From Spirochaetia bacterium (GTDB lineage Bacteria > Spirochaetota > Spirochaetia > UBA9216): a DNA stretch of 64,000 bases. A program made the translations under genes and the position numbers. Below, piece after piece: positions 34,915 through 53,310 of this stretch. The notes below the pieces were generated by a model. It was given only the letters and a program-made list of their open reading frames with translations. It was not told the origin of the DNA and did not search any database. The stretch spans positions 1,312,001-1,376,000 of the forward strand of contig CAXXYH010000004.1 in assembly GCA_963677925.2 (NCBI GenBank), read 5' to 3'. Each line of letters begins with the position of its first letter. Position 1 is the stretch's first letter.

Positions 34915-34923
34915 TAACAGCAG

Positions 34924-37900: not shown

Positions 37901-38001
37901 TAAGCTGGGAAGATTTTCATCCCTCCGGTGCGGCCTTCACGCCGGAATATGTAACTGAAGCTGCGGGGCTTATGGGTGAAGTTTATCTATATATTGAATA
38001 A
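34924..38001 (+). CDS. Cytoplasmic glycoside hydrolase, GH106-like
   Basis: PFWAWND, GGFFIHSREGL, YDEDTWPSG, GFFTDEP, PGIDLL, SEMYG; no signal peptide. Confidence 0.8.
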   Translation: MDTLDEINKRLNGASPKYRSAPFWAWNDSLRPERLTGQIDLMKEQGIGGFFIHSREGLETEYLSDEWMDCTEAALNHAEKSGMEVWIYDEDTWPSGSVGGAVSAADPQHFSAKALTLEISTNKNHSNDADILAVCPAEPYAGPGAENRFLVFRRELSGPSEWYNGSAPSDNMNPEAVRLFLNKTHKAYADCFGEKLGPAIKGFFTDEPNVCDFFANFTAGRPWLPWTDSFTQSFIDARGYDIQGILPLLFFKGEGSEKARYDYWLTLTEIFVTSYTRQLYDWCEEHNVKLTGHMLYENDLGYGVRCNGAVMPHYRYMHAPGIDLLGDQRSEYLTVKQCTSVANQFRRDMVLSEMYGCTGWEFSFSGQKRLGDWQYVMGVNKRCQHLALYSISGCRKRDYPPAFNYQSTFWEYSHLMEDYFARLGVCTTSGEVHRDILMIHPVGTFWMKSGSSADEDLSKVYMNMGWLDEHLMNLNREGDYYNQLTHQLLARQFDFDFGDELIMKDEASVSGSCLQVGSHSYSYVIVPPLQTLMASTIELLKDFLESGGHIFWMTPYPEYVDAEKSGKIAELTGHFRVHPVENFAKLVSVMSSMVQRPVRICDGFGTDCDRLLSMTRTLEKGRAVTIVNTAAEKLDGLILKFADRGRLTRLDLLSGDQSIVPVELDDQGGMNYRLSFEAEETVVFFIDETAEPEVSRPLSLYYRHPHDSVELVYGFPAVSPVRLTSENALTLDICSFRIADEAWSDELPVWQAQKIIRERFGMQAVHYNGAPQRYLWIDDKKEYPLSLRFSFTVDCTPEGEVFAAVEKSAGMKISCNSRACEQTEQWFIDEDFIKHRIPVLVNGENVLEIDLMYCSSTELEDIYITGNFGVSPSRRITGIPSTLERGDWSLQGLKHYPGSCIYQYEIPAAALAEIKASEGSRRLMLHLGEFSGALAVIRIDGGEPIFALRETDIELSGKIAPTAGPVSVEIEIVGSLRNLLGPLHRSADVCSRISWEDFHPSGAAFTPEYVTEAAGLMGEVYLYIE

Positions 38002-38062
38002 AACATAGTGACTAAAAATGCTTATCCCGTTTATAATCTATTTAGATTTTCAGGAGGTTTTT

Positions 38063-38611
38063 ATGGGTACTTTGGAAAATTCAAGCGCTGCAGGGTTCGC
38101 AGACGGGCAATGGGAAAGCATAGTTTCTGTTGTTTCTTCCTCATTCGGTTTCAGTGCTGATGAAAGTAAGAAATTATCAGAAAACAAAACCGCAAAGCTT
38201 ATTGCCGCAATCCCCTTTCTGGCCGGCTGTTCACAGCCCATGAGGACCGCAGTCGCTAATCTCGCTGTATACCATATTGCCAGGGCTGAAGGAAAATCAG
38301 TTTTTGAACATAATGCCTTAGATGATCAGGATGCCTATGCCAGATTATTCAGTATATCGAATTTTCAGGGCGGTGATGAAAAGATCATAAAAAGAGGAAT
38401 GGCCCTGCTTGCACTTCAGAGTCTGCGCAACCATGTGAAGGATTCCGGGACCGATGGAGCAAAGGGTAAGTATAACCCTGTCTCTGAAGGTAAATGGGAT
38501 GCTTCAGCAATTGAAACTCAACTTCTCACTGAAATACAAAATGTAGAAAGTCCTGAAATGGATGAAATTTTGAGTTCAGGAGATGTAGATGGCTTCTGGG
38601 ATAACAACTAA
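38063..38611 (+). CDS. Hypothetical all-alpha protein, 182 aa (possible isoprenoid-synthase-like motifs)
   Basis: AGGAGG SD, own promoter GTGACT-18-TATAAT (38008-38037); LDDQD and NHVKDSGTDGAKGKYNP; ends DGFWDNN. Confidence 0.8.
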   Translation: MGTLENSSAAGFADGQWESIVSVVSSSFGFSADESKKLSENKTAKLIAAIPFLAGCSQPMRTAVANLAVYHIARAEGKSVFEHNALDDQDAYARLFSISNFQGGDEKIIKRGMALLALQSLRNHVKDSGTDGAKGKYNPVSEGKWDASAIETQLLTEIQNVESPEMDEILSSGDVDGFWDNN

Positions 38612-39437
38612 TAAATTTTCAATTTTTAAAGTACAAAAAAGGATTTCATATATAGTCTCAGCCCTTGGGATGCTTGTTGTGTTTATCAACTTCTTTGATT
38701 TGGTACGGCGATTTCCTGTTATAGATGCACTTTTGTATCCTTCTGTCGGTATTATACTTGCAGTATCAATCGTTATCTTTTTAACCTCACTAAAAGACAG
38801 CAGTTTTTTAAGGTATGTACAGCTGTTTATCTTTTTTCTTGTAGGTGCTATTGCAATTCTTGATGTTTATAATTCCTTTCATGGCCTGGGTCTTGTTATT
38901 CTGACTTTGATAATCGGTTTCCGCTACGGCCTCTTTGAAAAGAAGCCCCTTTTAAAGATATTTCTGTTTATAGGCATAATATTTGTTATTGTAGAAATTG
39001 CCGCAAGTCTTCAGAGCGGGGTAATACGCTGGAATACCGGTCTGGATGCAATAATGTACATCCTTGTCTTTATAGGGGTCCTCTATACCATCTATTCAAA
39101 TGAAATTATCTACTACGTAAAATTAACCACCGAGGCTGAAAATAAACTGAACCGGATAGAAATGGAGCGGACCCGCCTCCAGAACAAGCTTGATGATCTT
39201 GATCTGGTGTACAGACAGCTGACCCAGCCTGCCGATCTTGACTCCATGGGAATTACTCCCAGAGAGATGGAAGTTATTGAGGCTCTGGTTGTTTACCGGG
39301 AACGGGACAGGGCATTGGCTGAAAGGCTCGGGATTTCACCCTATACACTGAAAGAACATATGAAGCATATCAGGGACAAGCTGGGCGTTGACCGCAGGGA
39401 TGAGATTGTCGATATGTGCAGGAATAATTTTTCTTAA
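38589..39437 (+). CDS. Membrane-integral LuxR-family one-component regulator
   Basis: About 6 TM helices, coiled coil, ITPREMEV..LAERLGISPYTLKEHMKHIRDKLGV HTH. Confidence 0.88.
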   Translation: MASGITTNKFSIFKVQKRISYIVSALGMLVVFINFFDLVRRFPVIDALLYPSVGIILAVSIVIFLTSLKDSSFLRYVQLFIFFLVGAIAILDVYNSFHGLGLVILTLIIGFRYGLFEKKPLLKIFLFIGIIFVIVEIAASLQSGVIRWNTGLDAIMYILVFIGVLYTIYSNEIIYYVKLTTEAENKLNRIEMERTRLQNKLDDLDLVYRQLTQPADLDSMGITPREMEVIEALVVYRERDRALAERLGISPYTLKEHMKHIRDKLGVDRRDEIVDMCRNNFS

Positions 39438-39448
39438 TCCGGGGAACC

Positions 39449-41014
39449 TTATATCTGCAGTTCGCGTTTCATGTACTTTTCATAATACCTTATCATCTGG
39501 CATGAGAATATAATACGCTGACGCAGAATGCCGTCCTCAAGATCAAGTTCAATGAGTTTGTTGATTTTATTAACCTTATTTATGACTGTGTTCCTGTGAG
39601 CATAGGTAACCGCCGCTGTTTTTACCAGGTTCCGGTCATTCAGCAGGTAATAAAACAGGGTGTCCCGAAGGTTAGTGTTGTGATCCCTGTCGTATCTGGT
39701 CAGGTGCACAACCGCCGGATGAATCAGATAGACTATGTCGTTATGGTGATGAAGTTCGTAGAATCGGTGCGCGCACATATCTATTGCGGTATATATCCAG
39801 AACTCCTCGTAAAAGAATATCCTCTCTTTCAGGTTCTCACGAAGTTCGCAGGCCAGCGGAATTGTGTTTTTTGCCAGAATATTGAGTGAGCGCAGGTTTC
39901 CGAAATCCCTGGTTCCGTTGCTTATCCCAATAAAACCGTTGTGCCGCTCAAGAATGGTTTCAAGCCTTTTTGTATCAAGGTTTAAGTTGAATGTCCTCTG
40001 CGGATAGGTTTGAAGAATCACAACCTCATTCTCGTAAACCGTCATATTGCAGTCCGGAAATACTTCTCGCAGCTGTGCAAATATAAAACTTGAGGGCGTC
40101 TGCTTGGTGTTTTTATTCCGGAAAGTTACAACAATCACGCGGACAAAGGTTTCAATTGGAAAGGGCATCAGTCTGAGTCTCTGAATTATCTCGAAGGTCT
40201 GGGTCAGGCTCTGATCCATTATTTCCATCCAGAACTGTTTGAAGTCCTTTGTATAGGTTCCAAGCTTCAGCGAATTGGCCGGAAGGATGTGGCGGTGAAT
40301 CGCCTGTCCGGCACAGACGCATAATCCCCTGCAGTCAATCTCGATCTGTTCAATGCTGCTTTCAATCAAGATAACACTAACAAGCTGATCCTCGTGATAT
40401 ATCCGGTATCCGTAAAGGCGAATACCGCTCTCGGCTACCTTATATTCAACCGGTAAATGCTTCTCTGATCTGTTTATGAAAATAGAGTCTGCAATTTTTT
40501 TTGGGAGAGCGCCTGTCTGGTCCAGATGTTCGGTCAGAAATTTGCTTTCTTCCAGTTTGCAGCTGAGTACGATGCGGTAATTCGGATTCAGCAGAATGAT
40601 CGGGGATTCGGCAAAATCAGATGTCAGATTAAGCATTGCGTATAAGGACTGATCATCAGCTGTAGCATATTTATCAAGCCAAATCTGCCTGAGAGTGAGT
40701 ATTTTGTTGATCATAACAAAAAGATTCGTCCGCGGACAGGAAAGGTAAATAACCGAAATTTCAGGATTCTTGTTCAGGATCACATAATTTGATTTGTGTT
40801 CACATATAAAAATTACAGTACCGGGTTCAATTTCGACATTTTGAAGATTTCTTACTGTTTCTTCGCCAGCGCCTATCCAGGTCTTATCTGCACATAGGGT
40901 TTTCTGATTATCTATAAAATCAACTTCCTGCGGGCATGTTTCCGGCAGGTTCTTTTCATCGGCGTAAACGGTGCACTGCCTCAGATGCTGAAAAAGATAT
41001 GACAGATAAAGCAT
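39449..41014 (-). CDS. PucR/CdaR family transcriptional regulator
   Basis: C-terminal YDRDHNTNLRDTLFYYL..AHRNTVINKVNKI HTH; own promoter TCGACA-17-TATAAT (41060-41088). Confidence 0.88.
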   Translation of the reverse strand: MLYLSYLFQHLRQCTVYADEKNLPETCPQEVDFIDNQKTLCADKTWIGAGEETVRNLQNVEIEPGTVIFICEHKSNYVILNKNPEISVIYLSCPRTNLFVMINKILTLRQIWLDKYATADDQSLYAMLNLTSDFAESPIILLNPNYRIVLSCKLEESKFLTEHLDQTGALPKKIADSIFINRSEKHLPVEYKVAESGIRLYGYRIYHEDQLVSVILIESSIEQIEIDCRGLCVCAGQAIHRHILPANSLKLGTYTKDFKQFWMEIMDQSLTQTFEIIQRLRLMPFPIETFVRVIVVTFRNKNTKQTPSSFIFAQLREVFPDCNMTVYENEVVILQTYPQRTFNLNLDTKRLETILERHNGFIGISNGTRDFGNLRSLNILAKNTIPLACELRENLKERIFFYEEFWIYTAIDMCAHRFYELHHHNDIVYLIHPAVVHLTRYDRDHNTNLRDTLFYYLLNDRNLVKTAAVTYAHRNTVINKVNKINKLIELDLEDGILRQRIIFSCQMIRYYEKYMKRELQI

Positions 41015-41111
41015 TGTTTTTGTACTCCTGAATGTATAAAAAACGGAACTTAAGGCTTGATTATATTCTTAATCGCCGGTTTTGTCGAATTAAACCGGTT
41101 GAGCAGGCCGA

Positions 41112-41215
41112 TGTGCGAAAAGTACAAAATATTCTTTCATTAATGTGCTTATATCACAGATTATCAGACGCCTTTAAAAAATGATTTTTAAGGAAAAACT
41201 ATCACGTGTTAGCCT
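41112..41215 (+). promoter_or_regulatory. Activator-type promoter A: paired boxes plus extended -10
   Basis: TGTGC-N6-TACA (41112) and TGTGC-N6-CACA (41144), 32 bp apart; TGTTAGCCT at 41207. Confidence 0.7.
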
Positions 41216-41257
41216 GAGAATCAAAGGAAAAGAAAATTTTTATTAAAGGAGATCTAC

Positions 41258-41320
41258 ATGAATTGCCCGCCTCGTGCTGCGCTCAGACCCAAACTATTTA
41301 AAACGGAAATTTCAAAATGA
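41258..41320 (+). CDS. 20-aa leader ORF coupled to tctB
   Basis: AAGGAG SD; MNCPPRAALRPKLFKTEISK; stop overlaps tctB start (ATGA). Confidence 0.5.
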   Translation: MNCPPRAALRPKLFKTEISK

Positions 41321-41811
41321 CTGAATATATAAAAAACAAGAAAGATTTTATCCTTGGTGTTGCTACTATTGTGATTGCTGCGTTGATTACTATTCTTTCA
41401 ATGCAGCTCAGGGCTTCCGGATATGACGGTGACCCGGGTCCGAAAATGTTCCCGATGACCGGTGCCGCAATTATGCTTATCTGCGGAATTGCGCTGATTA
41501 TCAAGCCAGGCAAGGTGGCAGGTACCTTCCTTACCCGTAAACAGTGGCTCTCGGCACTTACCATGTTTGGTGTTTATGTCGGAGTTGCTGTTCTGTTTTT
41601 CCTTCTGGGATTTATGCTCTCTCTTCCGATTATTGCCTTCACTCTTACCTTTCTAATGAGCAGGCTGTCGCTGAAGGATCTGGAGCTGAAAAAGCGTATT
41701 CTGAAAAGCCTTATCTATGCGGTAATTGCCAGCGTCTGTGTATACCTTGCATATGTTGTAGGTCTTAACGCAAGGCTTCCTGAAGGTTTGATATTTAAAC
41801 TTTTCTACTGA
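41317..41811 (+). CDS. tctB: Tripartite tricarboxylate transporter TctB
   Basis: DPGPKMFP, LGFMLS, LNARLPEG; precedes tctA. Confidence 0.85.
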   Translation: MTEYIKNKKDFILGVATIVIAALITILSMQLRASGYDGDPGPKMFPMTGAAIMLICGIALIIKPGKVAGTFLTRKQWLSALTMFGVYVGVAVLFFLLGFMLSLPIIAFTLTFLMSRLSLKDLELKKRILKSLIYAVIASVCVYLAYVVGLNARLPEGLIFKLFY

Positions 41812-41823
41812 GGATAAAAAATA

Positions 41824-43344
41824 ATGGAAATAATGGATTTAATTTTTGGTGCACTGCATAATATTTTTACGCCTACAGGACTTATATACATAATAGCGGG
41901 AGCCCTGGGCGGAATCGTGCTTGGAGCTATTCCCGGCCTGGGAAGCTCAACGTTGATGGTAATTCTGTTACCTATAGCCTACCGTCTGGATACCAACCTG
42001 GTTCTGGCGCTGTTTATTTCAATTGTAATCGGAGGTATGTCCGGCGGATGTATCGGGTCAATTCTTCTGGGAATTCCTGGTACTGCCTCGTCGCTGGCAA
42101 CGGTCTGGGACGGGTACGAGTTTACCAAACAGGGAGACCCTGTCCGCCCCTTAAGCGCCGCGGTAACAGTTAACTTTCTGGGAACCTTCCCTTCAATCAT
42201 TCTTGCAATCTTTGCCTGCCGCGGTATTGCAATATGGGCTGTTAAACTTGGGCCATGGGAATATGCCGCCTTATGTTTCTGCGCTATTCTGATGGTTGTA
42301 GGACTGTCCAAAGGCAACCTCGTAAAGAGTATGATTGGTGTAGGCCTCGCAATCTTTCTGGCTTCAATCGGTGAAGACCCCATAAATGCAAGCGGACGTT
42401 TCTTGCTTTTCGGACGTCTTGAGTTCCTAAAGGGCCTGAACCTTATCAGCGTAATGCTTGGTCTTTTTGCCGCCAAGATTATTCTTCTTGAATACGCAAG
42501 GGCAAGTAAGACTGAACAGAAAATCGATATCAAGGTTGGCGGGTACAAGTGGCCCGGAAAAGACCTTTCAAAGAATAAACTTCCCGTACTGAGATCCTGG
42601 ATACTCGGTGCTGTTGTAGGATTCCTTCCGGGCCTCGGCGGTCCTGTTGCTTCTGTTATGGGCTATTCCACCGAGAGAATGCTTGCAAAGGACAAGTCCA
42701 AATGGGGCAAGGGTGAGATTGCCGGTGTTCTATGCCCGGAAATCGCCAAGAACTCCGCAATCGGCGGTGCTCTTATTCCGCTTATCGCACTGGGTATTCC
42801 CGGCGACGCGGCCAATGTTCAGTTTATTACTGCCCTGAACGTTAAGGGAATAAACGTAGGTCCCATGTTCATGCGTGAACAGCCGATGATCGTTTACATC
42901 ATTTTTATTGCCGCCCTTATTGCCGCAGTAATCTGTCTTCTGTATGAAACATTCTGTATGAAGACCTTTCCAGCCCTGCTGAAGATTCCCTATCACTACC
43001 TCTATTCAATGGTTGTAATTCTGGCTTTGACCGGAGCTTTCATGACTACAGGAAGCTTCTTCGGTCTGATGGTCGCGCTGTTCTTCTGTCTGCTGGGGAT
43101 CGTTATGGATGTCTTCGGGGTGCCGAGTCTGCCTTTTCTGATGGCATTCATACTCTCGCCCATGCTTGAGCTCAATATCAGAAGGGGTCTGAACTATTCA
43201 GTAAACGGTTTTTCAGAGTTTTTCCGCAGACCTATATCCTGCGTATTTATCATAGTCGGACTTGGTGTTCTTATATACGGTTTCGTGGGACCTGTTATCA
43301 AGAAGGCGATAGCCGAAAGAAAAGCTGCGGCAGCAGTTAAATAA
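41824..43344 (+). CDS. tctA: Tripartite tricarboxylate transporter TctA
   Basis: GAIPGLG, SILLGIPGT, TVWDGY, GFLPGLG, LGIPGD. Confidence 0.92.
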   Translation: MEIMDLIFGALHNIFTPTGLIYIIAGALGGIVLGAIPGLGSSTLMVILLPIAYRLDTNLVLALFISIVIGGMSGGCIGSILLGIPGTASSLATVWDGYEFTKQGDPVRPLSAAVTVNFLGTFPSIILAIFACRGIAIWAVKLGPWEYAALCFCAILMVVGLSKGNLVKSMIGVGLAIFLASIGEDPINASGRFLLFGRLEFLKGLNLISVMLGLFAAKIILLEYARASKTEQKIDIKVGGYKWPGKDLSKNKLPVLRSWILGAVVGFLPGLGGPVASVMGYSTERMLAKDKSKWGKGEIAGVLCPEIAKNSAIGGALIPLIALGIPGDAANVQFITALNVKGINVGPMFMREQPMIVYIIFIAALIAAVICLLYETFCMKTFPALLKIPYHYLYSMVVILALTGAFMTTGSFFGLMVALFFCLLGIVMDVFGVPSLPFLMAFILSPMLELNIRRGLNYSVNGFSEFFRRPISCVFIIVGLGVLIYGFVGPVIKKAIAERKAAAAVK

Positions 43345-43412
43345 ACTGAAATTTTATAAATCTTCGCAAATAGCAGGGCAACCTGTATTTGAATATAAAT
43401 TTGGAGGAAGAA

Positions 43413-44477
43413 ATGAAAAAGGTAATTGTATTACTCATAGCAGTTGGACTGATCTTCAGTCTCGCCGGTTGTGACAAAACAAAATCCGCAGAAGGTTCAT
43501 CAGCTAAATCTTCTGAATCAGCATCATGGCCCAATGGTGACATTACAATTCTGGCAGGTTATGCTGTCGGTTCAAGGACCGATATCAATATCCATACAGT
43601 AGCAGACTGGATTACAGACAAAACAGGTGCAACAGTTCGAATTGAGAACAACGATACAGGCGGCGGTGCCAACCTTGCCACCCAGCTTGTTCATGCTGAT
43701 CCGGACGGACAGACTCTTATGCTTATCGGTATGAACTGTATTGCAAACTACTACAGCGGTCTGTGGTCAGTTAACCCCTGCGATACAAGCCAGTTTAAGC
43801 TTGTATGCGGAGCTATTCAGCCCTATCCGGATTCAGGATGTATTCTCGTAACTCAGGCAAATCAGCCTTACAGCAACTGGGAAGAACTTGCAGCATATGC
43901 AAAAGCCAACCCCGGAAAGGTAACTGTAGCTTCTATTGCCGGAAAAGTTATGGACATCAAGATGAAGGGTCTGTTTAACGGAACCGGCGTAGCAAAGGAT
44001 ATCAGATGGGTTTCAACTACAAATGCAGATGCCTCTGCCGGCCTTTTAGGCGGAAATATAAATATAATCATTCTTGATGAATGGGCAGCCAGCGGCTACC
44101 TCAAGGATGACAAGGTTAAGGCAATCATCAACTCACGTGATAATGCTGATTATTCCTACTACAAAGACGGTGAAGAAAAGGATATCATCATGAGTGTTCC
44201 TACACTTATCGATGTTTTCGGTGAAGAAAAAGGCAAGGCTCTTGCTATTCCCAACCGCTCAATGTTCGTAGCTCCGGCAGACACTCCTGATGAAATTGTT
44301 GCTCAGATTGCAGAAGTCATTGATGCTCTAGGCGCAGAGACAGAGGGTGATTACTATGAGAGAACCCTTATTAACGGCGGAACTTCAAAGTACTACACAT
44401 GGCCGGGTAAAGAAGTTATGGATGAATGGAACAGACTTGATCCAATAATTAAAGATATTGTTGAAATGGCAAAATAA
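43413..44477 (+). CDS. tctC: TTT substrate-binding lipoprotein TctC/Bug (divergent)
   Basis: LAGC lipobox; WPNGDIT, ADPDGQTL, YAKANPGK, VPTL, APADTPDEIV. Confidence 0.85.
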   Translation: MKKVIVLLIAVGLIFSLAGCDKTKSAEGSSAKSSESASWPNGDITILAGYAVGSRTDINIHTVADWITDKTGATVRIENNDTGGGANLATQLVHADPDGQTLMLIGMNCIANYYSGLWSVNPCDTSQFKLVCGAIQPYPDSGCILVTQANQPYSNWEELAAYAKANPGKVTVASIAGKVMDIKMKGLFNGTGVAKDIRWVSTTNADASAGLLGGNINIIILDEWAASGYLKDDKVKAIINSRDNADYSYYKDGEEKDIIMSVPTLIDVFGEEKGKALAIPNRSMFVAPADTPDEIVAQIAEVIDALGAETEGDYYERTLINGGTSKYYTWPGKEVMDEWNRLDPIIKDIVEMAK

Positions 44478-44511
44478 TTCCCCGCTTTACATTTAAAAAT
44501 AAAACCAATTG

Positions 44512-44532
44512 GGGAAGCCCTATGGGCTTCCC
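44512..44532 (+). terminator. Intra-operon hairpin after tctC
   Basis: GGGAAGCCC-tat-GGGCTTCCC, no T-tail. Confidence 0.55.
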
Positions 44533-44568
44533 TGCATTAAAAGAAATAAAAGATTACCAGGAGTCTTT

Positions 44569-45948
44569 ATGAACCTTTCCCATACTCTCGCAGAATTTGT
44601 GGCAGAGACTGTATATGATGATATTGATCCGCGTGTTATAGAGACTCAGAAGAAATCGGTGATGGATGCCGTGGCAATTACACTCGGCGCTTCCGGTCTG
44701 GGGGACGGCTGCAGCCAGATGCTTAAAATTGCGAAGGACCTGTCGGCCGGAGGAAGCGGGGAAGCTGCTGTAATAGGATTCCGGGAACGTCTGCCCGCAG
44801 CCTGGGCAGCGTTTGCCAATGCTTCAATGGCGCACTCTCTGGATTTCGGAGATACTCATTTACGAAGCACAATCCATTCAAACTCATCAAGTTTTCCGGC
44901 AGCTCTGGCCATGTCAGAGAAGATTGGAAACATATCAGGCAAAAAACTTCTTGAAGCCCTGGTTCTCGGAAGCGAGGTCGCAGTCCGCATTGCCCTTGCA
45001 GCCGATGTTAATACACTTGAATACGGATTCTACATCCCCACAATCTATTCATCCTACGGAGCAACCGCGGCTGTTGCAAAGATTATGGGTTTAAGTGCCG
45101 AGCAGATTGTAAGCGCTTTTTCTTTTAATCTCTGTCAAAGCACCTGCAGCAGTGAGCTCGTCAACAATCCGAAAACTGCTCTAAGGTCCATTCGTGAATC
45201 CTTTACTGCCAGAAATGCTATTGTCGCCTGCTGTATGGCCCGGGAGGGGCTTACAGGTTTTGATGCTCCGCTGGAAGGAGAGCTTGGTTTTTATCATGCA
45301 TTTCTTCATGACAACTATACCGCAGAAAAGGCCCTTGACGGTCTGGGTACTCATTACGAAGCAGGTGATCTTACATTCAAGGTATGGCCCTGCTGTTTCG
45401 GAACTCATTCATCAATCACCGCAGCTTCAATTATTGCGAAAGAAGAGAATGTAAAGGCTGAAGACATAAAACATATTCAGGTCTCAATCGGAGCTCAGAA
45501 CAAAATGCTTTTTGAGCCGCTTGATGAAAGACGGAATCCCGAATCATCAATAATCGGGAAGTTCAGTATTCCCTTTACAATGGCTACAGCTCTAATCAAG
45601 GGGAATGTTGATTTAAACAGTTTCAGTAAGGAAAACCTTCAGGATAAGCAAGTCAGAGCTCTGGCTTCACTTATCGATTATACATATATGGAAGACTGGC
45701 AGCGGGGAAAGGAGGCCTGGACTAAGGTTATTATCGAAACCGCCGGAGGTACATTTGAACGCATGGTTACAAATCCATTCGGTACTCCCGAGAATCCGAT
45801 GGATGAAAACATGTTTGATCTGAAGTTTGATTCCTGCGCGCAAAATGCAGTTAACCCTAAGACTCAGCAGGAACTTGACCTGCTGAAATCTTCAATCAGA
45901 ACTCTCGAAGACTGTAAAAACATCTGTGAGTTTACAGAACTTCTCTAA
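44569..45948 (+). CDS. MmgE/PrpD family protein (paralog 2)
   Basis: AHSLDFGDTH..H, FKVWPCCFGTH, KFSIPF, GTPENPM; AGGAG SD. Confidence 0.92.
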   Translation: MNLSHTLAEFVAETVYDDIDPRVIETQKKSVMDAVAITLGASGLGDGCSQMLKIAKDLSAGGSGEAAVIGFRERLPAAWAAFANASMAHSLDFGDTHLRSTIHSNSSSFPAALAMSEKIGNISGKKLLEALVLGSEVAVRIALAADVNTLEYGFYIPTIYSSYGATAAVAKIMGLSAEQIVSAFSFNLCQSTCSSELVNNPKTALRSIRESFTARNAIVACCMAREGLTGFDAPLEGELGFYHAFLHDNYTAEKALDGLGTHYEAGDLTFKVWPCCFGTHSSITAASIIAKEENVKAEDIKHIQVSIGAQNKMLFEPLDERRNPESSIIGKFSIPFTMATALIKGNVDLNSFSKENLQDKQVRALASLIDYTYMEDWQRGKEAWTKVIIETAGGTFERMVTNPFGTPENPMDENMFDLKFDSCAQNAVNPKTQQELDLLKSSIRTLEDCKNICEFTELL

Positions 45949-45964
45949 TTAAGGATAAAAACAA

Positions 45965-47125
45965 ATGAATAAAGAAAACATAACCATTCTGGGGGTAGGA
46001 GATAATATTCCGGGAATGGGATACTATGATGGTCTGTACGATCATGTTGCACCCATACTTCAGGATGCTGATATTACATTCGGTCAGCTTGAAACCGTTC
46101 TCATCGATGAAAAAATTGATGACCTGTTTCCCTTTGCTGCTTCACAGGCTCGAATGCCCTGTTCTTCAGATCCGAAAGTGGCTCCGGTGCTTAAGGATGC
46201 CGGCTTTGATATAGTATCATTCGCCTCAAATCACTCGCTTGACTACGGCCGTTTTCATTTCCTTAATACAGTTGATTATCTGCGGAATGCAGGTATGGAA
46301 GTTATCGGCGCCGGTGAAAACGAAGAAGATGCCCGACGCTTTTCAGTGATTGAGCGTGACGGAACAAAGATTGCCTTTCTCGGCTACTGCACAATACTGC
46401 CGCAGGATTACTGGGCGCAGGAAGCCCGTCCCGGTGTTAACCCTGCACGGGGGCATACATACTATGAGCAGATAGAGCATGATCAGCCGGGCACACCCTG
46501 CAGAGTGCACAGCTGGGCTCACAAACAGGACAAGGCGCATCTGCTTGATGATATTGCTCAGGCTAAAAAGCAGGCTGATATAGTTGTTGTTTCAATGCAT
46601 TGGGGTATTCATTTTACACAGGCCGAGATTGCCGAGTATCAGAGAGAGTATGCATATGAAGCAATTGATGCCGGTGCGGATCTAATCCTGGGGCACCATG
46701 CTCATATCCTCAAGCCTATCGAGGTATACAAGGGCAAGGTGATCTTCTATTCGCTTGGAAATTTTGCAATGACTGACCCTGATAAAATGGAGCGTGATAA
46801 AAAAACTCTTCGTCAGGATATGCGTACGTCAAAAAAACATCAGGAGATGGCCAGGATACGCAAGGGCTTCGGCACCGGCAACGCGGCCAAAACCTTCCCT
46901 GAAGATTGCTACTATTCAATGATAGCCAAGATTTCAGTTAAAGACAGAAAGATAGATCGCGTCTCCTATATTCCGGTCTACATTCCTGATGATTTCAAGC
47001 CCTACGCGGTGAAGAATGATGATCCGCTATTTAATACTATATTTGATTACATGAAGAATATTGATCAGATGATGAATATAGAAACTGCGTACAGCATAGA
47101 AGGGGATGAGGTTATTATTGATTAG
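45965..47125 (+). CDS. CapA-family metallophosphoesterase-fold protein, cytoplasmic
   Basis: GVGD, QLE, SNHSLDYG, SMHWG, GHHAH, YSLGNF; no signal or TM. Confidence 0.9.
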   Translation: MNKENITILGVGDNIPGMGYYDGLYDHVAPILQDADITFGQLETVLIDEKIDDLFPFAASQARMPCSSDPKVAPVLKDAGFDIVSFASNHSLDYGRFHFLNTVDYLRNAGMEVIGAGENEEDARRFSVIERDGTKIAFLGYCTILPQDYWAQEARPGVNPARGHTYYEQIEHDQPGTPCRVHSWAHKQDKAHLLDDIAQAKKQADIVVVSMHWGIHFTQAEIAEYQREYAYEAIDAGADLILGHHAHILKPIEVYKGKVIFYSLGNFAMTDPDKMERDKKTLRQDMRTSKKHQEMARIRKGFGTGNAAKTFPEDCYYSMIAKISVKDRKIDRVSYIPVYIPDDFKPYAVKNDDPLFNTIFDYMKNIDQMMNIETAYSIEGDEVIID

Positions 47126-47141
47126 GACATAAGCTTTTGCA

Positions 47142-47244
47142 TATGCAAATAGCACATTACCCGGAAGACTGTTTGTACGCATGTCACAGACTTTAATTTT
47201 CCGGGGATGATTTGTTTTTATTTAAAAAATAAACATGTTAGGCT
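47142..47244 (+). promoter_or_regulatory. Activator-type promoter B: same architecture as promoter A
   Basis: TATGC-N6-CACA (47142) and TGTAC-N6-CACA (47174), 32 bp apart; TGTTAGGCT at 47236. Confidence 0.7.
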
Positions 47245-47308
47245 TAGCCAACTGATTTATTACATAGAAAATTTAAATCGCAATTAATGCATAAATAAGG
47301 GGTTTACT

Positions 47309-49720
47309 ATGACAGGTCGTGTTGAACGAATGAAAGAAAGTCTGCGGGTCAATAAATATCCGCTGTGTATTCAGCTGTTCAGGCTGGCAAATGAGTCTCT
47401 GGATATGACAGCCGGAGAGCCGATGCTGCTGCGCCGATCAAAACTGCACGCACATATTCTTGATAACATTGATATATTTATTGAAGAGGATGACTTACTC
47501 TGCGGATCCGGAGCAAGCAAGCCCTTCGGTCTTGAGATGCAGTATGAATACGGTGTCTGGACACAGGATGAAGTAGAGTCGCTTAAAAGTGAAATCTATA
47601 CCATCGATCCTGAAGATGAGAAAGAACTTTACGAACTCAACGAACGCTTTGCCGGAAATTCACTCAACAGCAACCTGGTTGAGACAATGGGTAAATCTCT
47701 CGGAATGACAGAACGTCTATGGCCCTTCATGAAATCAGGAACAATACTTCCTCCATGGAAGGACAGAACCGGAGGTTCCGGCGGCGGATTTGCAATGTCA
47801 GGATACGGTCTGGGCCCGGGCTTTTCCCTGGTTGGAATTGACTACTCACGCATCCTTAACGGCGGAGCAAAGTCTGTAATTGAAGAAGCAAAGCAGTGTC
47901 TTCTTGATCTCCGCTATGATTCTTCAGATGCAATCGAAAAGAGAAACTTCTGGGAAGGTATAATCATTGTTTATGAAGCATGGGTCCGCTTTGCAGGCCG
48001 CTATGCTGATCTTGCCGAGAAGATGGCTGAGGCTGAAAGCAATGCCGACAGAAAGGCTGAACTTATTGAGATGGCCAGAATCTGCCGCAAGGTTCCATAT
48101 GAACCTGCTGAAACTTTCCATGAAGCACTGCAGTCTTTCTGGTTTACCTTCCTGCTCGTATGTCCTTCACCTACATCAACAGCCGGCCGTTTTGATCAGT
48201 ACATGTATCCCTTCTATAAGGCTGATATTGACAGCGGCCGAAGTGATGACGACAAGATTCTCGAACTCCTTGAAATCATGCGCTGCAAGGTTATGAAAAT
48301 CAACCGTGTATCAGGAAAGGCAAACAGGGCAAAGAATGCCGGTATGGCAAAGTGGTATAACTGGACAATCGGCGGTCAGAAGGCTGACGGCAGCGATGCT
48401 ACAAATGAGCTGAGCTATCTTCTTCTTGATGCTGCACTTGATACGCATCTTCCCCACCACACCATCACTGTCCGCGTTCATAAGGGAACTCCTGAAAAAC
48501 TGATGGTTAAGGCTCTTGAGTGCGTAAGAAGCGGACTCGGTCTTCCAGCCTTCCTCGGGGATGAATCAAACATCAACTTCTTTACCTCACAGAGCGATAA
48601 AAACAAGCTTTCGATTGAAGTTGCCAGAGATTATGTAGCAACAGGCTGTGTTGATGCCAACGTTCCTTCTGTAACCAGAACTCAGGTAGCCTGCTTTTTT
48701 ATCATACCCCAGGCCATGGATATCTGCATGCATAACGGATACTGCCGCTATACAGAGGAAATGGTCGGTATGCAGACAGGCGATGTCACTGAAATGAAAA
48801 CCTTTGAAGAGTTCAAGGCTGCAATGCATACACAGATACAGCATCTGATGAGCATGGCAAATGAACGAATCAACGTAGAGCTTATAGCAGAACGTGATCT
48901 CTTTCCGGATGTCTTCCGCTCCTCACTTATGAAAGACGGCGTCAAGGTTGGTAAGGATATGTTCAACCGCCGCTTCGATTTTGAAAACGGTGCGGTTCTT
49001 GGTGCAGTCGGCGGTGTAAATACAGGTAACGCCATGTACGCCATCAAGAAGCTTGTCTTCGATGAAAAGAAATACACCATGAAGCAGCTGATGGAAGCCC
49101 TTGATGCAGACTGGGTTGGATATGAGGATATGCAGGCTGATTTTGCTGCAGTGCCCAAATACGGTAACGATGATTCTGAAGTTGATGCAATGGTTGCAGA
49201 AGTTTATCAGCTCCATGCCGATACATGCCACAGTCTGCCATGCGCCTATGGTGATTCGCTCAAGCCGAACGCAATTTCAATTTCTGCACACCAGCCCGGC
49301 GGCGCCTGTACAGGAGCTACTGCAGACGGAAGAAAGGGCGGAGAGATTCTTGCAGATGCTTCACTGTCGCCCGATCATGGACAGGATGTCCACGGTCCTA
49401 CAGCAGTTTTCAAGAGTGCGATGAAAGTCAACCAGGATCCCTACCAGGGAACACTGATGAACATGAAGTTTCATCCAACGAACATGAAAACTGAAAGTGA
49501 TTTAAAGAAACTCGGTGCCTTGATTAAAACCTACCTGACTAACGGCGGTAAGCATATTCAGTTTAATATTGTTAACCGTGAAGATATGGTTGATGCAAAG
49601 GTTCATCCCGAGGATCATCCTGAACTGGTAGTTCGGGTTGCAGGCTACAGTGCCTACTTCACACGCCTTACAGACGGTATTCAGGACGAGGTAATTAACC
49701 GAATGTCCCATACTTTATAA
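47309..49720 (+). CDS. Glycyl radical enzyme, uncharacterised clade (GRE-2)
   Basis: VRVAGYS Gly loop (Gly779), VATGCVD Cys loop (Cys447), GRFDQY, PKYGND, HIQFN. Confidence 0.95.
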   Translation: MTGRVERMKESLRVNKYPLCIQLFRLANESLDMTAGEPMLLRRSKLHAHILDNIDIFIEEDDLLCGSGASKPFGLEMQYEYGVWTQDEVESLKSEIYTIDPEDEKELYELNERFAGNSLNSNLVETMGKSLGMTERLWPFMKSGTILPPWKDRTGGSGGGFAMSGYGLGPGFSLVGIDYSRILNGGAKSVIEEAKQCLLDLRYDSSDAIEKRNFWEGIIIVYEAWVRFAGRYADLAEKMAEAESNADRKAELIEMARICRKVPYEPAETFHEALQSFWFTFLLVCPSPTSTAGRFDQYMYPFYKADIDSGRSDDDKILELLEIMRCKVMKINRVSGKANRAKNAGMAKWYNWTIGGQKADGSDATNELSYLLLDAALDTHLPHHTITVRVHKGTPEKLMVKALECVRSGLGLPAFLGDESNINFFTSQSDKNKLSIEVARDYVATGCVDANVPSVTRTQVACFFIIPQAMDICMHNGYCRYTEEMVGMQTGDVTEMKTFEEFKAAMHTQIQHLMSMANERINVELIAERDLFPDVFRSSLMKDGVKVGKDMFNRRFDFENGAVLGAVGGVNTGNAMYAIKKLVFDEKKYTMKQLMEALDADWVGYEDMQADFAAVPKYGNDDSEVDAMVAEVYQLHADTCHSLPCAYGDSLKPNAISISAHQPGGACTGATADGRKGGEILADASLSPDHGQDVHGPTAVFKSAMKVNQDPYQGTLMNMKFHPTNMKTESDLKKLGALIKTYLTNGGKHIQFNIVNREDMVDAKVHPEDHPELVVRVAGYSAYFTRLTDGIQDEVINRMSHTL

Positions 49721-49744
49721 TTTCATTTTGTATTCCTTCACTTT

Positions 49745-49785
49745 GCGCCGGAAGCCCTTCACGGTTTCCGGCGCTTCCTTTTTTT
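49745..49785 (+). terminator. Rho-independent terminator after GRE-2
   Basis: GCGCCGGAAGCC..GGTTTCCGGCGC plus T-run. Confidence 0.8.
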
Positions 49786-49787
49786 AA

Positions 49788-50540
49788 CTACACCGGAATG
49801 ACAATTGTATGTCCGCAGGCCTCTGTTACAGCAGATTCCATCCCGTAAACCTCTTTAATATTCTCAGGATTTATTATCTCTTTCCCGCCTGCAGCATGTA
49901 CCCGGCCTTCCCTGATAAGCAGAAATTTATCTGAGTAGCGGAGCGCAAGATTAATGTCGTGCATTGTCATTACGGCAGCCATCGGTTTTGAATGGATTAA
50001 TCTGCCGATTCTTGCCATAAGCTGATGCTGGTGACTGATATCAAGACTGCTTGTCGGTTCATCAAAAAGTATCAGTCTGGGTCTCTGGGCAAGAGCCCGC
50101 ACTATCTGGACAAGCTGGAACTCCCCGCCGCTTAACTCGTCTGCATAGCGGAGTGCAAGCTCTTCCAGGCCCATCAGCTTGATAGCTTCTTCAACTATGG
50201 CATGATCTTCTTTTCGGGGAGACCAGTGAAAGTGAGGTTTTCTTCCAAGCAGAACCAAATCATATACCTTCATTCTGACGGGTTCGGAATGCTGGGCTAC
50301 CAGGCCCGTCTTTCTAGCCATTTCTCCATGGCTGATATCACAGCAGTTTTTTCCGTCAATTAAAACTGTGCCCCTGTCAGGAGAAAGTATGAGGTTGAGG
50401 CATTTTAGAAGAGTAGTTTTTCCCGCGCCGTTCGGACCGAGAATTGAAAGTATTTCGCCCTCTTTGAGTTCAAAGCCTGCATCATCAATAACCCGGCGGC
50501 TTTTATAAGCAAAACTCAGACCGTCTACCTTAAGAATCAT
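49788..50540 (-). CDS. FecE/BtuD-type ABC ATPase
   Basis: GPNGAGKT, LSGGEFQ, DEPTSSLD, HDINLA. Confidence 0.92.
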   Translation of the reverse strand: MILKVDGLSFAYKSRRVIDDAGFELKEGEILSILGPNGAGKTTLLKCLNLILSPDRGTVLIDGKNCCDISHGEMARKTGLVAQHSEPVRMKVYDLVLLGRKPHFHWSPRKEDHAIVEEAIKLMGLEELALRYADELSGGEFQLVQIVRALAQRPRLILFDEPTSSLDISHQHQLMARIGRLIHSKPMAAVMTMHDINLALRYSDKFLLIREGRVHAAGGKEIINPENIKEVYGMESAVTEACGHTIVIPV

Positions 50541-51580
50541 CTGTTCCTTCCTGCCACAAGTAAATATATAAAGAGCGGCCCGCCGCAGATTGAGGTAAGG
50601 ATTCCTACGGGAAGAACCATCGGGGTTAAAACTGTTCTTGCCGCTGTGTCGGCTGCAAGAAGTATTATCGCGCCAATCAGCGGAGAGCTGATAAGCAGAA
50701 ACCGGTGGTCTGAGCCAAGCAGCCTTCGGGCAATGTGGGGACCCAGAAGACCGATAAATGCTATGGTTCCGAAAAAGGATACTATGACCGCCGAGATCAT
50801 GGAGGCGGCTGCCATTCCCGCAATACGCAGGGCTCCTGTCTTAATTCCAAGACTTTTAGCCGTATCCTCTCCGGTATCAAGGGCATTGAAATCCCACCGG
50901 AAATAAAAAAATGCAATGAATAGCGGAATGAGTACAGACGCTGTGATTACAAGCACGCGGTTGTTCGCCCTGCCCAGATCTCCGAAAGTCCAGGAAACGA
51001 TGCTTGCCAGCTGTACGCTGTCTGCCAGGTACTGCATTAAAGTCAGTCCGGCGGAAAAAAGAGAACCGATCGCAATTCCGGCAAGGACCATACTTTCAGC
51101 TGAAATCCTGGTGAATACTGTCAGCAGCAGAATGGCTATTGTAGAAACTGCGCAGAAGAAAAACGCCGAAGCGGCGACTGTAAATGAACTGCTGATAATG
51201 ATAGTTGATGTAGTGCCTGTGCCTGCACCGAGAAATACTATTGCAAATGAAGCTCCGAAGGCCGCCGCGCTTGAAAGTCCCAGGGTATATGGTGAGGCCA
51301 GCGGGTTTCGCAGGACCGACTGCATTACAGTTCCTGAGAGTGAAAGACCGGCTCCGACCAGCAGGGCTGCAATAATACGGGGCATTCTTACATCCCAGAC
51401 TATACGGCCTGTGCCTGAATTATCGAAGCGGAAAACATAGGCAAGCACATCTTTCAGAGGAATTCTGATAGTTCCTGCAGATGCTGAAAAAACAACAAGG
51501 GCAGCAAGAATAATTCCTGCTGCCGATATGAAAAGAATGCGTTTACTTTGCTCTTTTTTGTAAGAGCTGTAGATATTCAT
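50537..51580 (-). CDS. FecCD/BtuC-type ABC permease
   Basis: RMPR, QSVLRNPLASPYTLG, FIGLLGPHIAR, LPVGILTS. Confidence 0.93.
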   Translation of the reverse strand: MNIYSSYKKEQSKRILFISAAGIILAALVVFSASAGTIRIPLKDVLAYVFRFDNSGTGRIVWDVRMPRIIAALLVGAGLSLSGTVMQSVLRNPLASPYTLGLSSAAAFGASFAIVFLGAGTGTTSTIIISSSFTVAASAFFFCAVSTIAILLLTVFTRISAESMVLAGIAIGSLFSAGLTLMQYLADSVQLASIVSWTFGDLGRANNRVLVITASVLIPLFIAFFYFRWDFNALDTGEDTAKSLGIKTGALRIAGMAAASMISAVIVSFFGTIAFIGLLGPHIARRLLGSDHRFLLISSPLIGAIILLAADTAARTVLTPMVLPVGILTSICGGPLFIYLLVAGRNR

Positions 51581-51582
51581 TC

Positions 51583-52728: not shown

Positions 52729-52757
52729 AATAGATACCTCCAAGGTGTTTATGAGAT

Positions 52758-52786
52758 TGAGCTTCTTGTAAAACTCAGTTAGTTTT
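52758..52786. repeat. Second, partial copy of the 19156 palindromic repeat
   Basis: TGAGCTTCTTGtAAAACTCaGTTAGTTTT, 27/29 identical to 19156-19184. Confidence 0.7.
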
Positions 52787-52816
52787 TTCTGAATTCGGTG
52801 TTATTCAGTACAAGAT

Positions 52817-52844
52817 GTGACACGAAAAATAAAAATCGTGCTAC
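52817..52844. promoter_or_regulatory. NikR-type operator (28 bp)
   Basis: GTGACACGA-N10-TCGTGCTAC; same layout as E. coli nikA operator GTATGACGA-N10-TCGTCATAC; just downstream of TTGACT-17-TACCTT on minus strand. Confidence 0.75.
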
Positions 52845-52893
52845 TTGATAACAAGGTATTATTTTTTTCAGTTGAAGTCAATTATAAAAAGGT

Positions 52894-53310
52894 CTAAAGT
52901 AATTCTTTAAACAATTCATCTGTTGCAGTAACTGCAAGTTTTCCGATTATCTTTTTGCTTGAGAGAAGTTTTTGCGCCCATGCATGAACTTCCGAACCTC
53001 TGCCTCTGACAACCAGAACTTTAATGCGGATGTCGTTGTCAGCATGAAGCTGAATATTGGCGGTAATTTGTACCGACGGGTAGTTTTCAACCAGAACACG
53101 TGGAAGGCGGGTGGAGTGGTGATATAGAAGCGTTACAGTACCTATTATCTCGGGATCGGCATCGCCTGAATTTGTTTCAACAAGGGCCTGCCTTACCAGA
53201 CTTCGGATAGTCTCTGATCGGTTTTCATGTCCCTGTTCAATAGTGAACCGGTCAAGAAGTTCGACCATCTCACTGTCCATTGAAACACCGAATCTTACTG
53301 TTTCTCCCAT
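52894..53310 (-). CDS. nikR: NikR-like ribbon-helix-helix regulator
   Basis: VRFGVSMD, NRSETIRSLVR, GTVTLLYHH, VVRG. Confidence 0.8.
   Translation of the reverse strand: MGETVRFGVSMDSEMVELLDRFTIEQGHENRSETIRSLVRQALVETNSGDADPEIIGTVTLLYHHSTRLPRVLVENYPSVQITANIQLHADNDIRIKVLVVRGRGSEVHAWAQKLLSSKKIIGKLAVTATDELFKELL

Follow-up and report, generated by a model that had tools for sequence, protein, structure and literature searches.

We analysed a 64,000-nt stretch of the genome of a gut-type Spirochaetia bacterium (assembly GCA_963677925.2, contig CAXXYH010000004.1, positions 1,312,001 to 1,376,000; hereafter the window) and focused on a seven-gene locus at 39449-49785 whose last gene encodes an oxygen-sensitive glycyl radical enzyme (GRE). 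At this locus a PucR-family regulator gene is divergent from a co-directional run that encodes a carboxylate transporter, two accessory enzymes and the GRE itself. Its features, in window positions, are:

39449-41014, minus strand: PucR-family transcription regulator, 521 aa, divergent from the operon (Pfam HTH_30, PF13556, E 3.2e-10, 40 bits, residues 449-495)
41060-41088, minus strand: promoter-like site of the regulator gene, TCGACA-17-TATAAT, by an 11/12 consensus match only
41144-41162, plus strand: 19-nt element TGTRCNNATRTNACAGAYT, copy 1, candidate operator, ~155 bp upstream of tctB
41317-41811, plus strand: TctB, small membrane subunit of a tripartite tricarboxylate transporter (TTT) (Pfam TctB, PF07331, E 1.5e-14)
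41824-43344, plus strand: TctA, large membrane subunit (Pfam TctA, PF01970, E 1.8e-108)
43389-44477, plus strand: TctC, solute-binding lipoprotein (Pfam TctC, PF03401, E 3.9e-17; lipobox LAGC)
44509-45948, plus strand: MmgE/PrpD-family enzyme (Pfam MmgE_PrpD_N E 1.2e-57, 195 bits; MmgE_PrpD_C E 4.7e-29, 102 bits)
45965-47125, plus strand: PGA_cap (CapA/MslH-like) calcineurin-fold enzyme (Pfam PGA_cap E 6.4e-68, 229 bits)
47136-47149, no strand: perfect 14-bp palindrome TTTGCATATGCAAA in the CapA-GRE spacer
47174-47192, plus strand: 19-nt element TGTRCNNATRTNACAGAYT, copy 2, ~117 bp upstream of the GRE start
47309-49720, plus strand: GRE, 803 aa, with Cys447, Asp449 and Gly779 (PFL-like, PF02901, E 2.5e-145, 486 bits; Gly_radical, PF01228, E 3.6e-28, 98.6 bits)
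49745-49774, plus strand: intrinsic terminator at the end of the operon, between convergent genes (12-bp stem, 9 G-C pairs, loop 6, T-rich tail)

An earlier note on this DNA had described these seven genes and their families, and the open reading frame (ORF) map and the Pfam matches agree with it on both counts; the single strong terminator that it had placed behind the GRE gene is likewise real, its 12-bp stem with 9 G-C pairs being followed by a run of T. From tctB to the GRE gene the intergenic gaps measure 12, 44, 31, 16 and 183 bp. Since TctA, TctB and TctC are encoded by three adjacent genes, the locus holds a complete TTT set; the nearest solved relatives of TctC are terephthalate binders, and BugD and other Bug proteins match it too. 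The PucR-like protein reached no NCBIfam equivalog (AdeR 25.6 bits against a cut-off of 700, CdaR 18.8 against 612). A scan of 38500-50500 with Rfam at E up to 0.1 gave 0 matches, and thus no known riboswitch or leader at the locus.

Pfam places the GRE in its superfamily, with the PFL-like barrel and the C-terminal glycyl radical domain both present, and its glycyl motif (RVAGYSAYF, Gly779) and Cys loop (GCVD, Cys447) are intact. In residue-level alignments Asp449 falls opposite the Glu of GCVE in glycerol dehydratase (GD), the diol dehydratase PD, HpzG and 9RCO, and opposite a Leu in the decarboxylase AAD, whose loop reads GCVL. According to a 2026 GRE review (PMC13450708), the CXE motif is kept in all six C-O eliminases, CutC, the C-S lyases and three isomerases, with its Glu hydrogen-bonded to the substrate, and sections 5.6 and 5.7 name GD, PD, HypD, CutC, IslA, HpsG, HplG, YbiW and PflD as CXE enzymes. 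The GRE studied here reads C-V-D and lacks this mark of the eliminases and isomerases. The same review describes His164 of GD as the proton donor to the leaving hydroxyl; this residue falls opposite Leu174, so that the His expected of glycerol and propanediol dehydratases is missing as well. The register was taken from the start of the 1R8W alignment (query 71 to chain 161) and from the PD alignment (GVGH against gfsl), three residues being assumed ungapped for GD. At the level of sequence, the changes from Glu to Asp449 and from His164 to Leu174 argue against a plain GD-type dehydration by the GRE.

No curated family takes in the GRE. It misses every NCBIfam GRE cut-off (score/cut-off: TIGR01774, the PFL2/GD subfamily model, 514/678, the best; CutC 434/1050; HypD 400/1100; HpsG 487/1000; HpfG 404/1000; IAD 433/1100; HPAD 347/1150; PflD-type 410/1109; PFL 88/994), and all equivalogs remain below half their cut-offs. 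Solved structures are about equally distant from it: GD (1R8W) scores 427.6 bits, AAD (7E7L) 409.7, CutC 407 and PD (5I2A) 399.9. With GD (C. butyricum, 1R8W/1R9D) and PD the GRE shares the PFL-like barrel, the glycyl radical domain, the Cys-loop register and a separate radical SAM activase, at an identity of ~35% as judged by analogy with equally scoring representatives. It differs from GD in having Asp449 for Glu435 and Leu174 for His164, and from both enzymes in a clade-specific insertion around residues 140-174, in four conserved arginines and in a context of carboxylate carriers rather than microcompartments or aldehyde enzymes. AAD, the second-best solved match, likewise departs from CXE and, according to section 5.4 of the review, requires no small subunit. 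However, the GRE has Asp and not Leu two residues after the Cys, its carriers and neighbours indicate di/tricarboxylates rather than arylacetates, and the NCBIfam decarboxylase models stay far under their cut-offs.

A scan of 1.84 billion representatives with the GRE gave 7864 matches at E up to 0.001, and scores fell from 1501 bits (78% identity, its own cluster) over 1045, 837, 745 and ~525 to a plateau at ~35% identity. Among 141 full-length aligned rows, made up of 134 representatives and the 7 GREs of the genome, the Cys-loop position reads CxE in 70 and CxD in 20. A FastTree phylogeny with SH-like supports was built from 82 rows (the genome's 7 GREs and the 75 best full-length representatives of 150 listed). 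All 17 CxD rows of this tree fell into one 22-row clade with SH-like support of 100 and a single label change, and 0 of 500 shuffles gave as low a number. None of 10 clade representatives passed any NCBIfam cut-off. Judged from these comparisons, Cys-x-Asp GREs form a monophyletic clade that reaches no curated family threshold. The clade is further set apart by conserved arginines (R325, R340, R457 and R554) that are rare outside it, with Gly at position 554 in 99/121 outgroup rows, and by the insertion mentioned above. The note's description of the GRE as non-canonical is borne out by the Asp in place of the Glu of GCVE, and its question whether the protein clusters with a characterised GRE can be answered: by NCBIfam scores, solved structures, the tree and the clade representatives alike, it does not.

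As an ortholog set we took the best 80 of 316 stretches that encode relatives of the GRE in species-representative genomes, at 70-99% identity. Their hosts are Lachnospiraceae, Oscillospiraceae, Clostridiaceae, Eggerthellaceae/Coriobacteriaceae, a few others and two Spirochaete metagenome-assembled genomes (MAGs); the closest ortholog, 99% identical, comes from a Spirochaetia MAG record, and the Spirochaete relative at locus L017 (L numbers denote fetched loci) is 88% identical. In the alignment C-V-D, L174, R340 and R457 are kept in 80/80 orthologs, R325 in 78/80 and R554 in 76/80. The catalytic Cys is present in all 80 and the glycyl motif in 78, the other two being cut by contig ends. The clade is thus widespread in Lachnospiraceae, Oscillospiraceae, Eggerthellaceae and rumen MAGs, with 70-88% identity across phyla. 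Databases name such GREs 'hypothetical', 'pyruvate formate lyase family' or 'formate C-acetyltransferase' only. The review emphasises entire GRE clades without assigned function, and the term 'CXD' does not occur in its text (PMC13450708). In the literature outside subscription journals and supplements, no paper turned up that gives a CXD GRE a function or ties GREs to PrpD, CapA, PucR, TTT or sugar- or hydroxy acids; in the sole match for GRE together with PucR (PMC12507026) both terms occur in the reference list only. Cultured carriers of orthologs exist (Youngiibacter fragilis 232.1, Murimonas intestini DSM 26524 and Fusibacter ferrireducens Q10-2), which makes the question of function directly testable.

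On the ortholog tree the Spirochaete GREs (window, L016 and L017) nest within Bacillota sequences, and near-identical GREs occur in bins labelled Prevotella, Selenomonadales and Eggerthellaceae. Together, the nesting and the near-identical copies in distant bins point to either horizontal transfer of the module or mis-binned contigs. Open frames of up to 865 aa run antisense to the GRE gene at L018:5514-8111 and similarly in ~16 loci, and were treated as shadow ORFs; a neighbour cluster provisionally labelled 'GRE1-like?' (16 loci) was rejected, as it is such an antisense shadow ORF inside GRE genes and has no Pfam hit.

We then asked which genes accompany the orthologs. The 979 neighbouring ORFs were clustered, the cluster representatives annotated and the families recounted by tblastn over the 80 loci, many of which come from fragmented MAGs; neighbour statistics rest on these 80 loci and on 17 CapA-centred loci. 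An activase gene lies beside the GRE gene in 53/80 loci and a PucR-like gene, mostly directly divergent, in 39/80. A carrier is encoded at 42/80 loci (MatC_N/CitMHS 32+4, TctA 7), and 15/80 hold a second CXD GRE. CapA-like genes were counted at 17/80 loci, excluding a chimeric query ORF (L022:1713-3005), PrpD-like genes at 10/80, both at 9/80 and both together with TctA at 4/80. Among the 41 loci with at least 5 kb on each side, 33 have the activase, 29 PucR, 29 a carrier, 11 CapA and 7 PrpD, and only two (L080 and L081) are without activase, PucR and carrier. On these counts the core of the system is PucR, the GRE, its activase and a MatC/CitMHS-type carboxylate carrier, and PrpD, CapA and Tct make up an accessory module. 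Other recurrent neighbours among the 80 loci are S15 peptidase/BD-FAE esterase (12), family-I CoA-transferase (12), URO-D-like (11), Opp permease (10), OYE-type reductase (8) and Hgd-type dehydratase subunit (6) genes.

The accessory genes recur with shuffled order in unrelated lineages. The window has Tct-PrpD-CapA-GRE, two Blautia MAGs (L073/L074) have GRE-PrpD-CapA-TctBAC, L054 has GRE-TctBAC-CapA with PrpD inverted, and Clostridium spp. have GRE-PrpD followed at a distance by CapA. TctA copies 69-73% identical to that of the window lie beside GRE orthologs in L037, L054, L073, L074 and L091. Five host genomes (2.4-6.2 Mb) contain 1, 1, 1, 2 and 0 copies of MmgE_PrpD_N, and all five copies lie within GRE loci; PGA_cap copies in the same genomes number 6, 5, 5, 6 and 2. 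In a CapA-centred metagenome scan of 17 loci, PrpD was near in 6 (L096, L099, L101, L106, L108 and L112) and the GRE in 2 (L097 and L102), most of the other contigs being too short to judge neighbours. On the ortholog tree 19 rows bear the CapA/PrpD label, which needs 14 changes; shuffled labels need 17 on average, and 16-18 of 500 shuffles come out as low. This indicates that the accessory module was gained, lost or relocated many times, although some 'none' labels are uncertain because of contig truncation. Thus, the context that the earlier note had judged unlike that of known GRE loci is indeed so, and the co-occurrence of PrpD, CapA, Tct and PucR with the GRE is real. As one fixed set, however, this context holds for the PucR core, and PrpD (10), CapA (17) and Tct (7 of 80) are accessory. 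Carboxylate import, also proposed there, is in keeping with the carriers at 42/80 loci.

Some of the ortholog loci deserve separate mention. The longest co-directional version of the module occurs in Youngiibacter fragilis and a relative (L083/L084, 7880-19000), where a divergent PucR gene is followed by MatC, GRE, activase, CitMHS, CapA-like, two 2-hydroxyacyl-CoA dehydratase (HGD-D) subunit and family III CoA-transferase genes; this arrangement suggests that the GRE product is handled as a CoA ester in some hosts. A Lachnospiraceae MAG has, at L022:1713-3005 (minus strand), an ORF whose CapA-like N-terminal part, with large deletions, runs on in frame into a fragment of a GRE (residues ~135-329, 45% identical). 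CapA precedes the GRE here as it does in the window, and the ORF represents either the decay of a CapA-GRE pair or a chimera of the assembly.

The 64-kb window encodes no activase, a point that the earlier note does not mention. A profile search of the genome found 7 GREs and only 2 activases of TIGR02494 grade, both on contig C3. Compared with the activases flanking orthologs, the one at C3:709289-710227 reaches up to 75% identity and the other at most 42%, and the former is therefore the likely trans-acting activase of the studied GRE. Five of the genome's GREs are CXD paralogs, each beside a MatC, TTT or TRAP carrier; among them are:

C4:213550: CXD GRE paralog with CLD loop, followed by TctBAC
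C3:710217: CXD GRE paralog with CLD loop, activase before it and MatC after it
C3:1385270: CXD GRE paralog with CLD loop, followed by MatC
27526-29922 of the window, minus strand: GRE-1, CXD GRE paralog with Cys loop GCMD, 43% identical to the studied GRE

GRE-1 is surrounded (27526-39437) by genes for an AraC regulator, a DHDPS-family (class I aldolase/dehydratase-type) protein, a TRAP DctPQM carrier, a 1025-aa GH106-like protein and LuxR-type proteins, a context that suggests a sugar-acid-type substrate. GRE-1-like paralogs (52-53% identity) adjoin orthologs of the studied GRE in several Clostridial loci.

We next compared the two accessory enzymes with characterised proteins. The best solved match of the PrpD-like protein is iminodisuccinate (IDS) epimerase (2HP0; E 7.2e-40, 140 bits, residues 22-444), ahead of cis-aconitate decarboxylase (CAD; E 1e-24) and 2-methylcitrate dehydratase (E 1e-7), and the PrpD equivalogs remain well short of their cut-offs (NF006943 50/575, NF042438 40/950 and TIGR02330 38/458 bits). 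The family motif H-x-x-D-F-x-D is kept in the alignment with IDS epimerase and CAD, AHSLDFGDTH falling opposite AHAIDFDDSF; the true start of the gene may be at Met21. All characterised members of the MmgE/PrpD family are described as using C2/C3-substituted four-carbon 1,4-dicarboxylates via (de)protonation of a C2 enolate, and two of the four known activities are epimerisations (PMC12290011). The PrpD-like enzyme is thus probably an enolate-forming isomerase or epimerase acting on a substituted 1,4-dicarboxylate. The family motif is kept, but the relationship to IDS epimerase, the closest solved relative, and to (S)-(R)-methylsuccinate isomerase is remote at 140 bits, curated models do not tell epimerases from the remaining members of the family, and those enzymes act in aerobic proteobacterial pathways without radical enzymes.

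The sole solved relatives of the CapA-like protein are the entries 8GQ9, 8GQA, 8GQB, 8ITG and 8ITH (E 3e-22), all of which are MslH (PMC10406935); against the NCBIfam MslH equivalog it scores 97 bits for a cut-off of 700. MslH epimerises the C-alpha of a C-terminal residue beside its free carboxylate and uses His88/Asp91, His295/Asp11 and a Ca(II) site (PMC10406935), CapA has been proposed to epimerise glutamyl units likewise (PMC8179263), and an all-L polymer was reported without pgsA (PMC6029982). In the alignment N89-H90-D93, H212 and H247 of the CapA-like protein correspond to N87-H88-D91, H259 and H295 of MslH, and D13 and E43, matched by eye only, to D11 and E44. Both His/Asp dyads and most metal ligands of MslH appear to be kept, and we consider the enzyme a probable C-alpha epimerase rather than a hydrolase. 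It has neither a hydrophobic N-terminal segment nor a transmembrane segment, in contrast to TctC with its lipoprotein signal ending in LAGC, and is therefore cytoplasmic. CapA and PgsA of poly-gamma-glutamate synthesis carry a membrane anchor. The window protein has the PGA_cap domain and apparently the dyads and most metal ligands in common with these proteins and with MslH (8GQ9), but it is without the anchor, and its partner is a small-molecule pathway instead of a peptide or polymer.

For these two enzymes the earlier note fared unevenly. Its CapA is cytoplasmic as it had said, but nothing supports the hydrolysis assigned to it: the nearest relatives of both accessory enzymes are cofactor-independent C-alpha epimerases (IDS epimerase and MslH), the biochemically characterised PGA_cap members are epimerases acting beside a free carboxylate, and both dyads appear to be kept. 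As for the isomerisation or dehydration proposed for PrpD, the nearest relative is IDS epimerase, and the dehydratase equivalogs are widely missed.

To see how the two transcription units might be controlled, we examined the regions upstream of tctB and of the GRE. The element TGTRCNNATRTNACAGAYT has exactly 2 matches in the 64 kb, against 0.01 expected, and 0 of 100 shuffles contained 2 or more. L017, with its PucR gene directly divergent, has it too, at 4765-4783 and ~125 bp upstream of its GRE; 110 of the 112 fetched loci lack it, and of the remaining two one is the window's own copy. As a candidate operator, this sequence is the sole sign here that the tctB unit and the GRE may answer to one regulator. 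Most loci, L017 among them (PucR, then in the opposite direction GRE, MatC and activating enzyme), have PucR and the GRE as immediate divergent neighbours, and in the window the two are separated by five genes. Alignment (MAFFT and a degenerate pattern) matches the 183-bp CapA-GRE spacer to that end of the PucR-GRE intergenic region of L017 which is next to the GRE, the common stretches being TGCAAAT.GCACATT and then TGTACGCAT.T.ACAGA.T, although blastn-short gave no link between the spacer and L017. The palindrome TTTGCATATGCAAA adjoins the first of these stretches and is a possible second operator. By eye, the promoter-like region of the regulator gene matches the L017 intergenic region on its PucR-proximal side, 12 nt of it exactly, and this site remains beside the regulator gene in the window.

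Taken together, the locus points to an anaerobic breakdown route for a plant- or host-derived polycarboxylic acid, and we give roughly even credence to the reading that it is a regulator-controlled catabolic set for an imported organic polyacid, with the key step carried out by a GRE of the Cys-x-Asp branch. The substrate taken up by the lipoprotein TctC and TctBA would be a di/tricarboxylate of the succinate type, substituted at C2/C3 (hydroxy- or amino-) and having more than one stereocentre; its non-cognate stereoisomers, or near analogues, would be converted through enolate chemistry by the PrpD-like and CapA-like enzymes. The activated GRE would then remove an H atom from a carbon adjoining a carboxylate, with Asp449 serving as base instead of Glu and the clade-specific R325, R340, R457 and R554 holding the carboxylates; the neighbouring group would leave to give a 2-oxo acid or another central metabolite. 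The PucR-like protein would sense the acid and activate both transcription units. Tartrate and 3-hydroxyaspartate isomers are candidate substrates, and the radical step could eliminate a group from an alpha-hydroxy or alpha-amino acid, remove a carboxyl group or be a new reaction. We infer a substituted succinate because of MmgE/PrpD chemistry, the resemblance of both accessory enzymes to C-alpha epimerases, the di/tricarboxylate carriers and the clade-specific arginines, and direct entry of the product into central metabolism because the minimal module elsewhere comes without a downstream enzyme. The scheme would account for the minimal module of regulator, GRE, activase and carrier sufficing in other genomes. 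By functional analogy only, this PucR-GRE-activase-MatC module resembles the E. coli ttdR-ttdAB-ttdT L-tartrate module, in which we take a regulator, one dehydratase and one carrier to suffice with oxaloacetate, a central metabolite, as product; TtdAB, however, is an Fe-S hydro-lyase and not a radical enzyme, and the regulator family differs. A bolder version, which we consider quite improbable, has the Cys-x-Asp clade perform a new GRE reaction on substituted succinates (for example C-C cleavage or rearrangement, a B12-independent counterpart of a carbon-skeleton mutase, or reverse fumarate addition), fed by a two-centre stereo-inversion system of the PrpD-like and CapA-like enzymes.

Several observations weigh against this catabolic reading. 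The second-best solved relative of the GRE is a decarboxylase (AAD), and the loss of the His164 equivalent speaks against plain GD-type dehydration. PrpD, CapA and Tct are each missing from 63-73 of the 80 loci, some contigs being cut; L096 has no GRE within 10 kb of its MatC, TctBAC, PrpD, CapA and URO-D-like genes; and because PGA_cap is multi-copy (2-6 per genome), the CapA-GRE linkage is weaker evidence than the PrpD-GRE linkage. His261 of MslH aligns with Gly214 of the CapA-like protein, and the conserved calcineurin-fold residues of the latter are common to phosphoesterases and alone do not part an epimerase from a hydrolase. The TGTRCNNATRTNACAGAYT pattern was not found in Clostridial loci, and its statistic is generous because the pattern was derived post hoc from sequences it matches. 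Finally, the recurrent S15, URO-D-like, CoA-transferase, OYE and Hgd neighbours hint at ester, peptide or CoA-dependent chemistry outside the favoured scheme.

We therefore weighed other explanations of the locus. In one, the GRE decarboxylates an aliphatic or aromatic polycarboxylate by a radical reaction (Kolbe-type or by H-atom transfer, as proposed for arylacetate decarboxylases), with the PrpD-like enzyme acting as a CAD-type enzyme and carboxyls being removed stepwise. AAD, at 409.7 bits against 427.6 for GD, is the top match for the Cys-loop segment and is too without the CXE Glu (GCVL), the catalytic His of GD is lost in the GRE, CAD forms the second group of relatives of the PrpD-like protein (E 1e-24), and URO-D-like genes occur at 11/80 loci. 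We nevertheless regard this explanation as unlikely, given NCBIfam scores of 433/1100 for IAD and 347/1150 for HPAD, carriers of di/tricarboxylate rather than aromatic-acid type, a PrpD-like protein that matches IDS epimerase far better than CAD, and the chemical consideration that a non-benzylic acid, on decarboxylation, would leave a radical without stabilisation. That the GRE is an ordinary glycerol or 1,2-propanediol dehydratase of the B12-independent kind, with unrelated genes beside it, is highly improbable: GD (1R8W) is the top solved match and PD the fourth, yet CXE has become CXD and His164 Leu in 80/80 orthologs, TIGR01774 scores 514 where 678 is required, the clade is separate from the CXE enzymes, and no microcompartment or aldehyde-handling genes lie nearby.

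Other alternatives concern the partners of the GRE. If tctBAC-prpD-capA were a self-standing acid-use module inserted between the PucR gene and the GRE, and served another substrate than the GRE's, one could understand why PucR is directly divergent from the GRE in most loci, why L096 has Tct-PrpD-CapA without a GRE within 10 kb and why the module is scattered over the GRE tree; moreover, the homology of the CapA-GRE spacer to the GRE-proximal part of the L017 intergenic region suggests that the GRE kept its own upstream region. We hold such an insertion to be rather unlikely, since all 5 MmgE/PrpD genes of four genomes are at GRE loci, the linkage survives at least 3 gene orders (window; L073/L074; L054) and the same 19-nt element TGTRCNNATRTNACAGAYT stands ahead of both units. 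The scheme of the earlier note, in which a polycarboxylate amide or ester is imported, hydrolysed by the CapA-like enzyme, isomerised or dehydrated by the PrpD-like enzyme and passed to a new GRE radical step, can appeal to the metallophosphoesterase-type fold of the CapA-like enzyme, with metal and His/Asp residues kept, and to S15 peptidase/esterase (12/80) and Opp (10/80) genes near orthologs, which also lie near the genome's PrpD and CapA paralogs. But in the parts of the literature available to us no PGA_cap member is known as a hydrolase, the characterised one being an epimerase and CapA being proposed as one (PMC8179263, PMC10406935); TTT and MatC carriers take free acids; and the scores for the PrpD dehydratase equivalogs fall far short, all of which leaves this scheme with little probability. 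Overall, the non-canonical GRE, its context, the carboxylate import and the co-occurrence put forward in that note stand, and its CapA hydrolysis does not.

GREs underlie several health-relevant conversions in the gut, among them choline to trimethylamine, the use of hydroxyproline, sulfonates to H2S, and the formation of p-cresol and skatole. The present clade is conserved and widespread and breaks the CXE rule, and a new reaction type, should the clade perform one, would open up a new class of GREs among abundant bacteria of the gut and rumen. New here are the link of PrpD and CapA to a Cys-x-Asp GRE and the shared upstream element. The recurrent carboxylate carriers and, in many lineages, the two epimerase-like enzymes narrow the search for the substrate to substituted di/tricarboxylic acids, and the function, once solved, would give the GRE family a new substrate class and possibly a new mechanism, and would account for an as yet unassigned anaerobic sink for dietary or host organic acids.

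Some further genes near the locus were noted. At 27-6394 the window encodes an Opp solute-binding protein, an S15 X-Pro-type peptidase, a PHB-depolymerase/BD-FAE-like esterase and a PrpD paralog (5018-6394, 35% identical). Outside the window, ~15 kb upstream, is a CapA paralog (42% identical) with two Opp systems next to it (C4:1296407-1311710). ADH and OYE-type reductase genes occupy 16160-19151, and C69 peptidase and Opp genes 20281-27421. Modules of all these kinds, the S15/esterase/Opp families included, accompany GRE orthologs in other genomes. Convergent with the GRE operon, 49788-53310 encodes a FecCD/BtuC-type ABC importer (ATPase, permease and binding protein) and then a NikR-like ribbon-helix-helix regulator, for which no link to the GRE pathway was found in other genomes except the 99%-identical MAG; the hairpin at 49745-49774 is possibly a bidirectional terminator common to the GRE operon and this importer.

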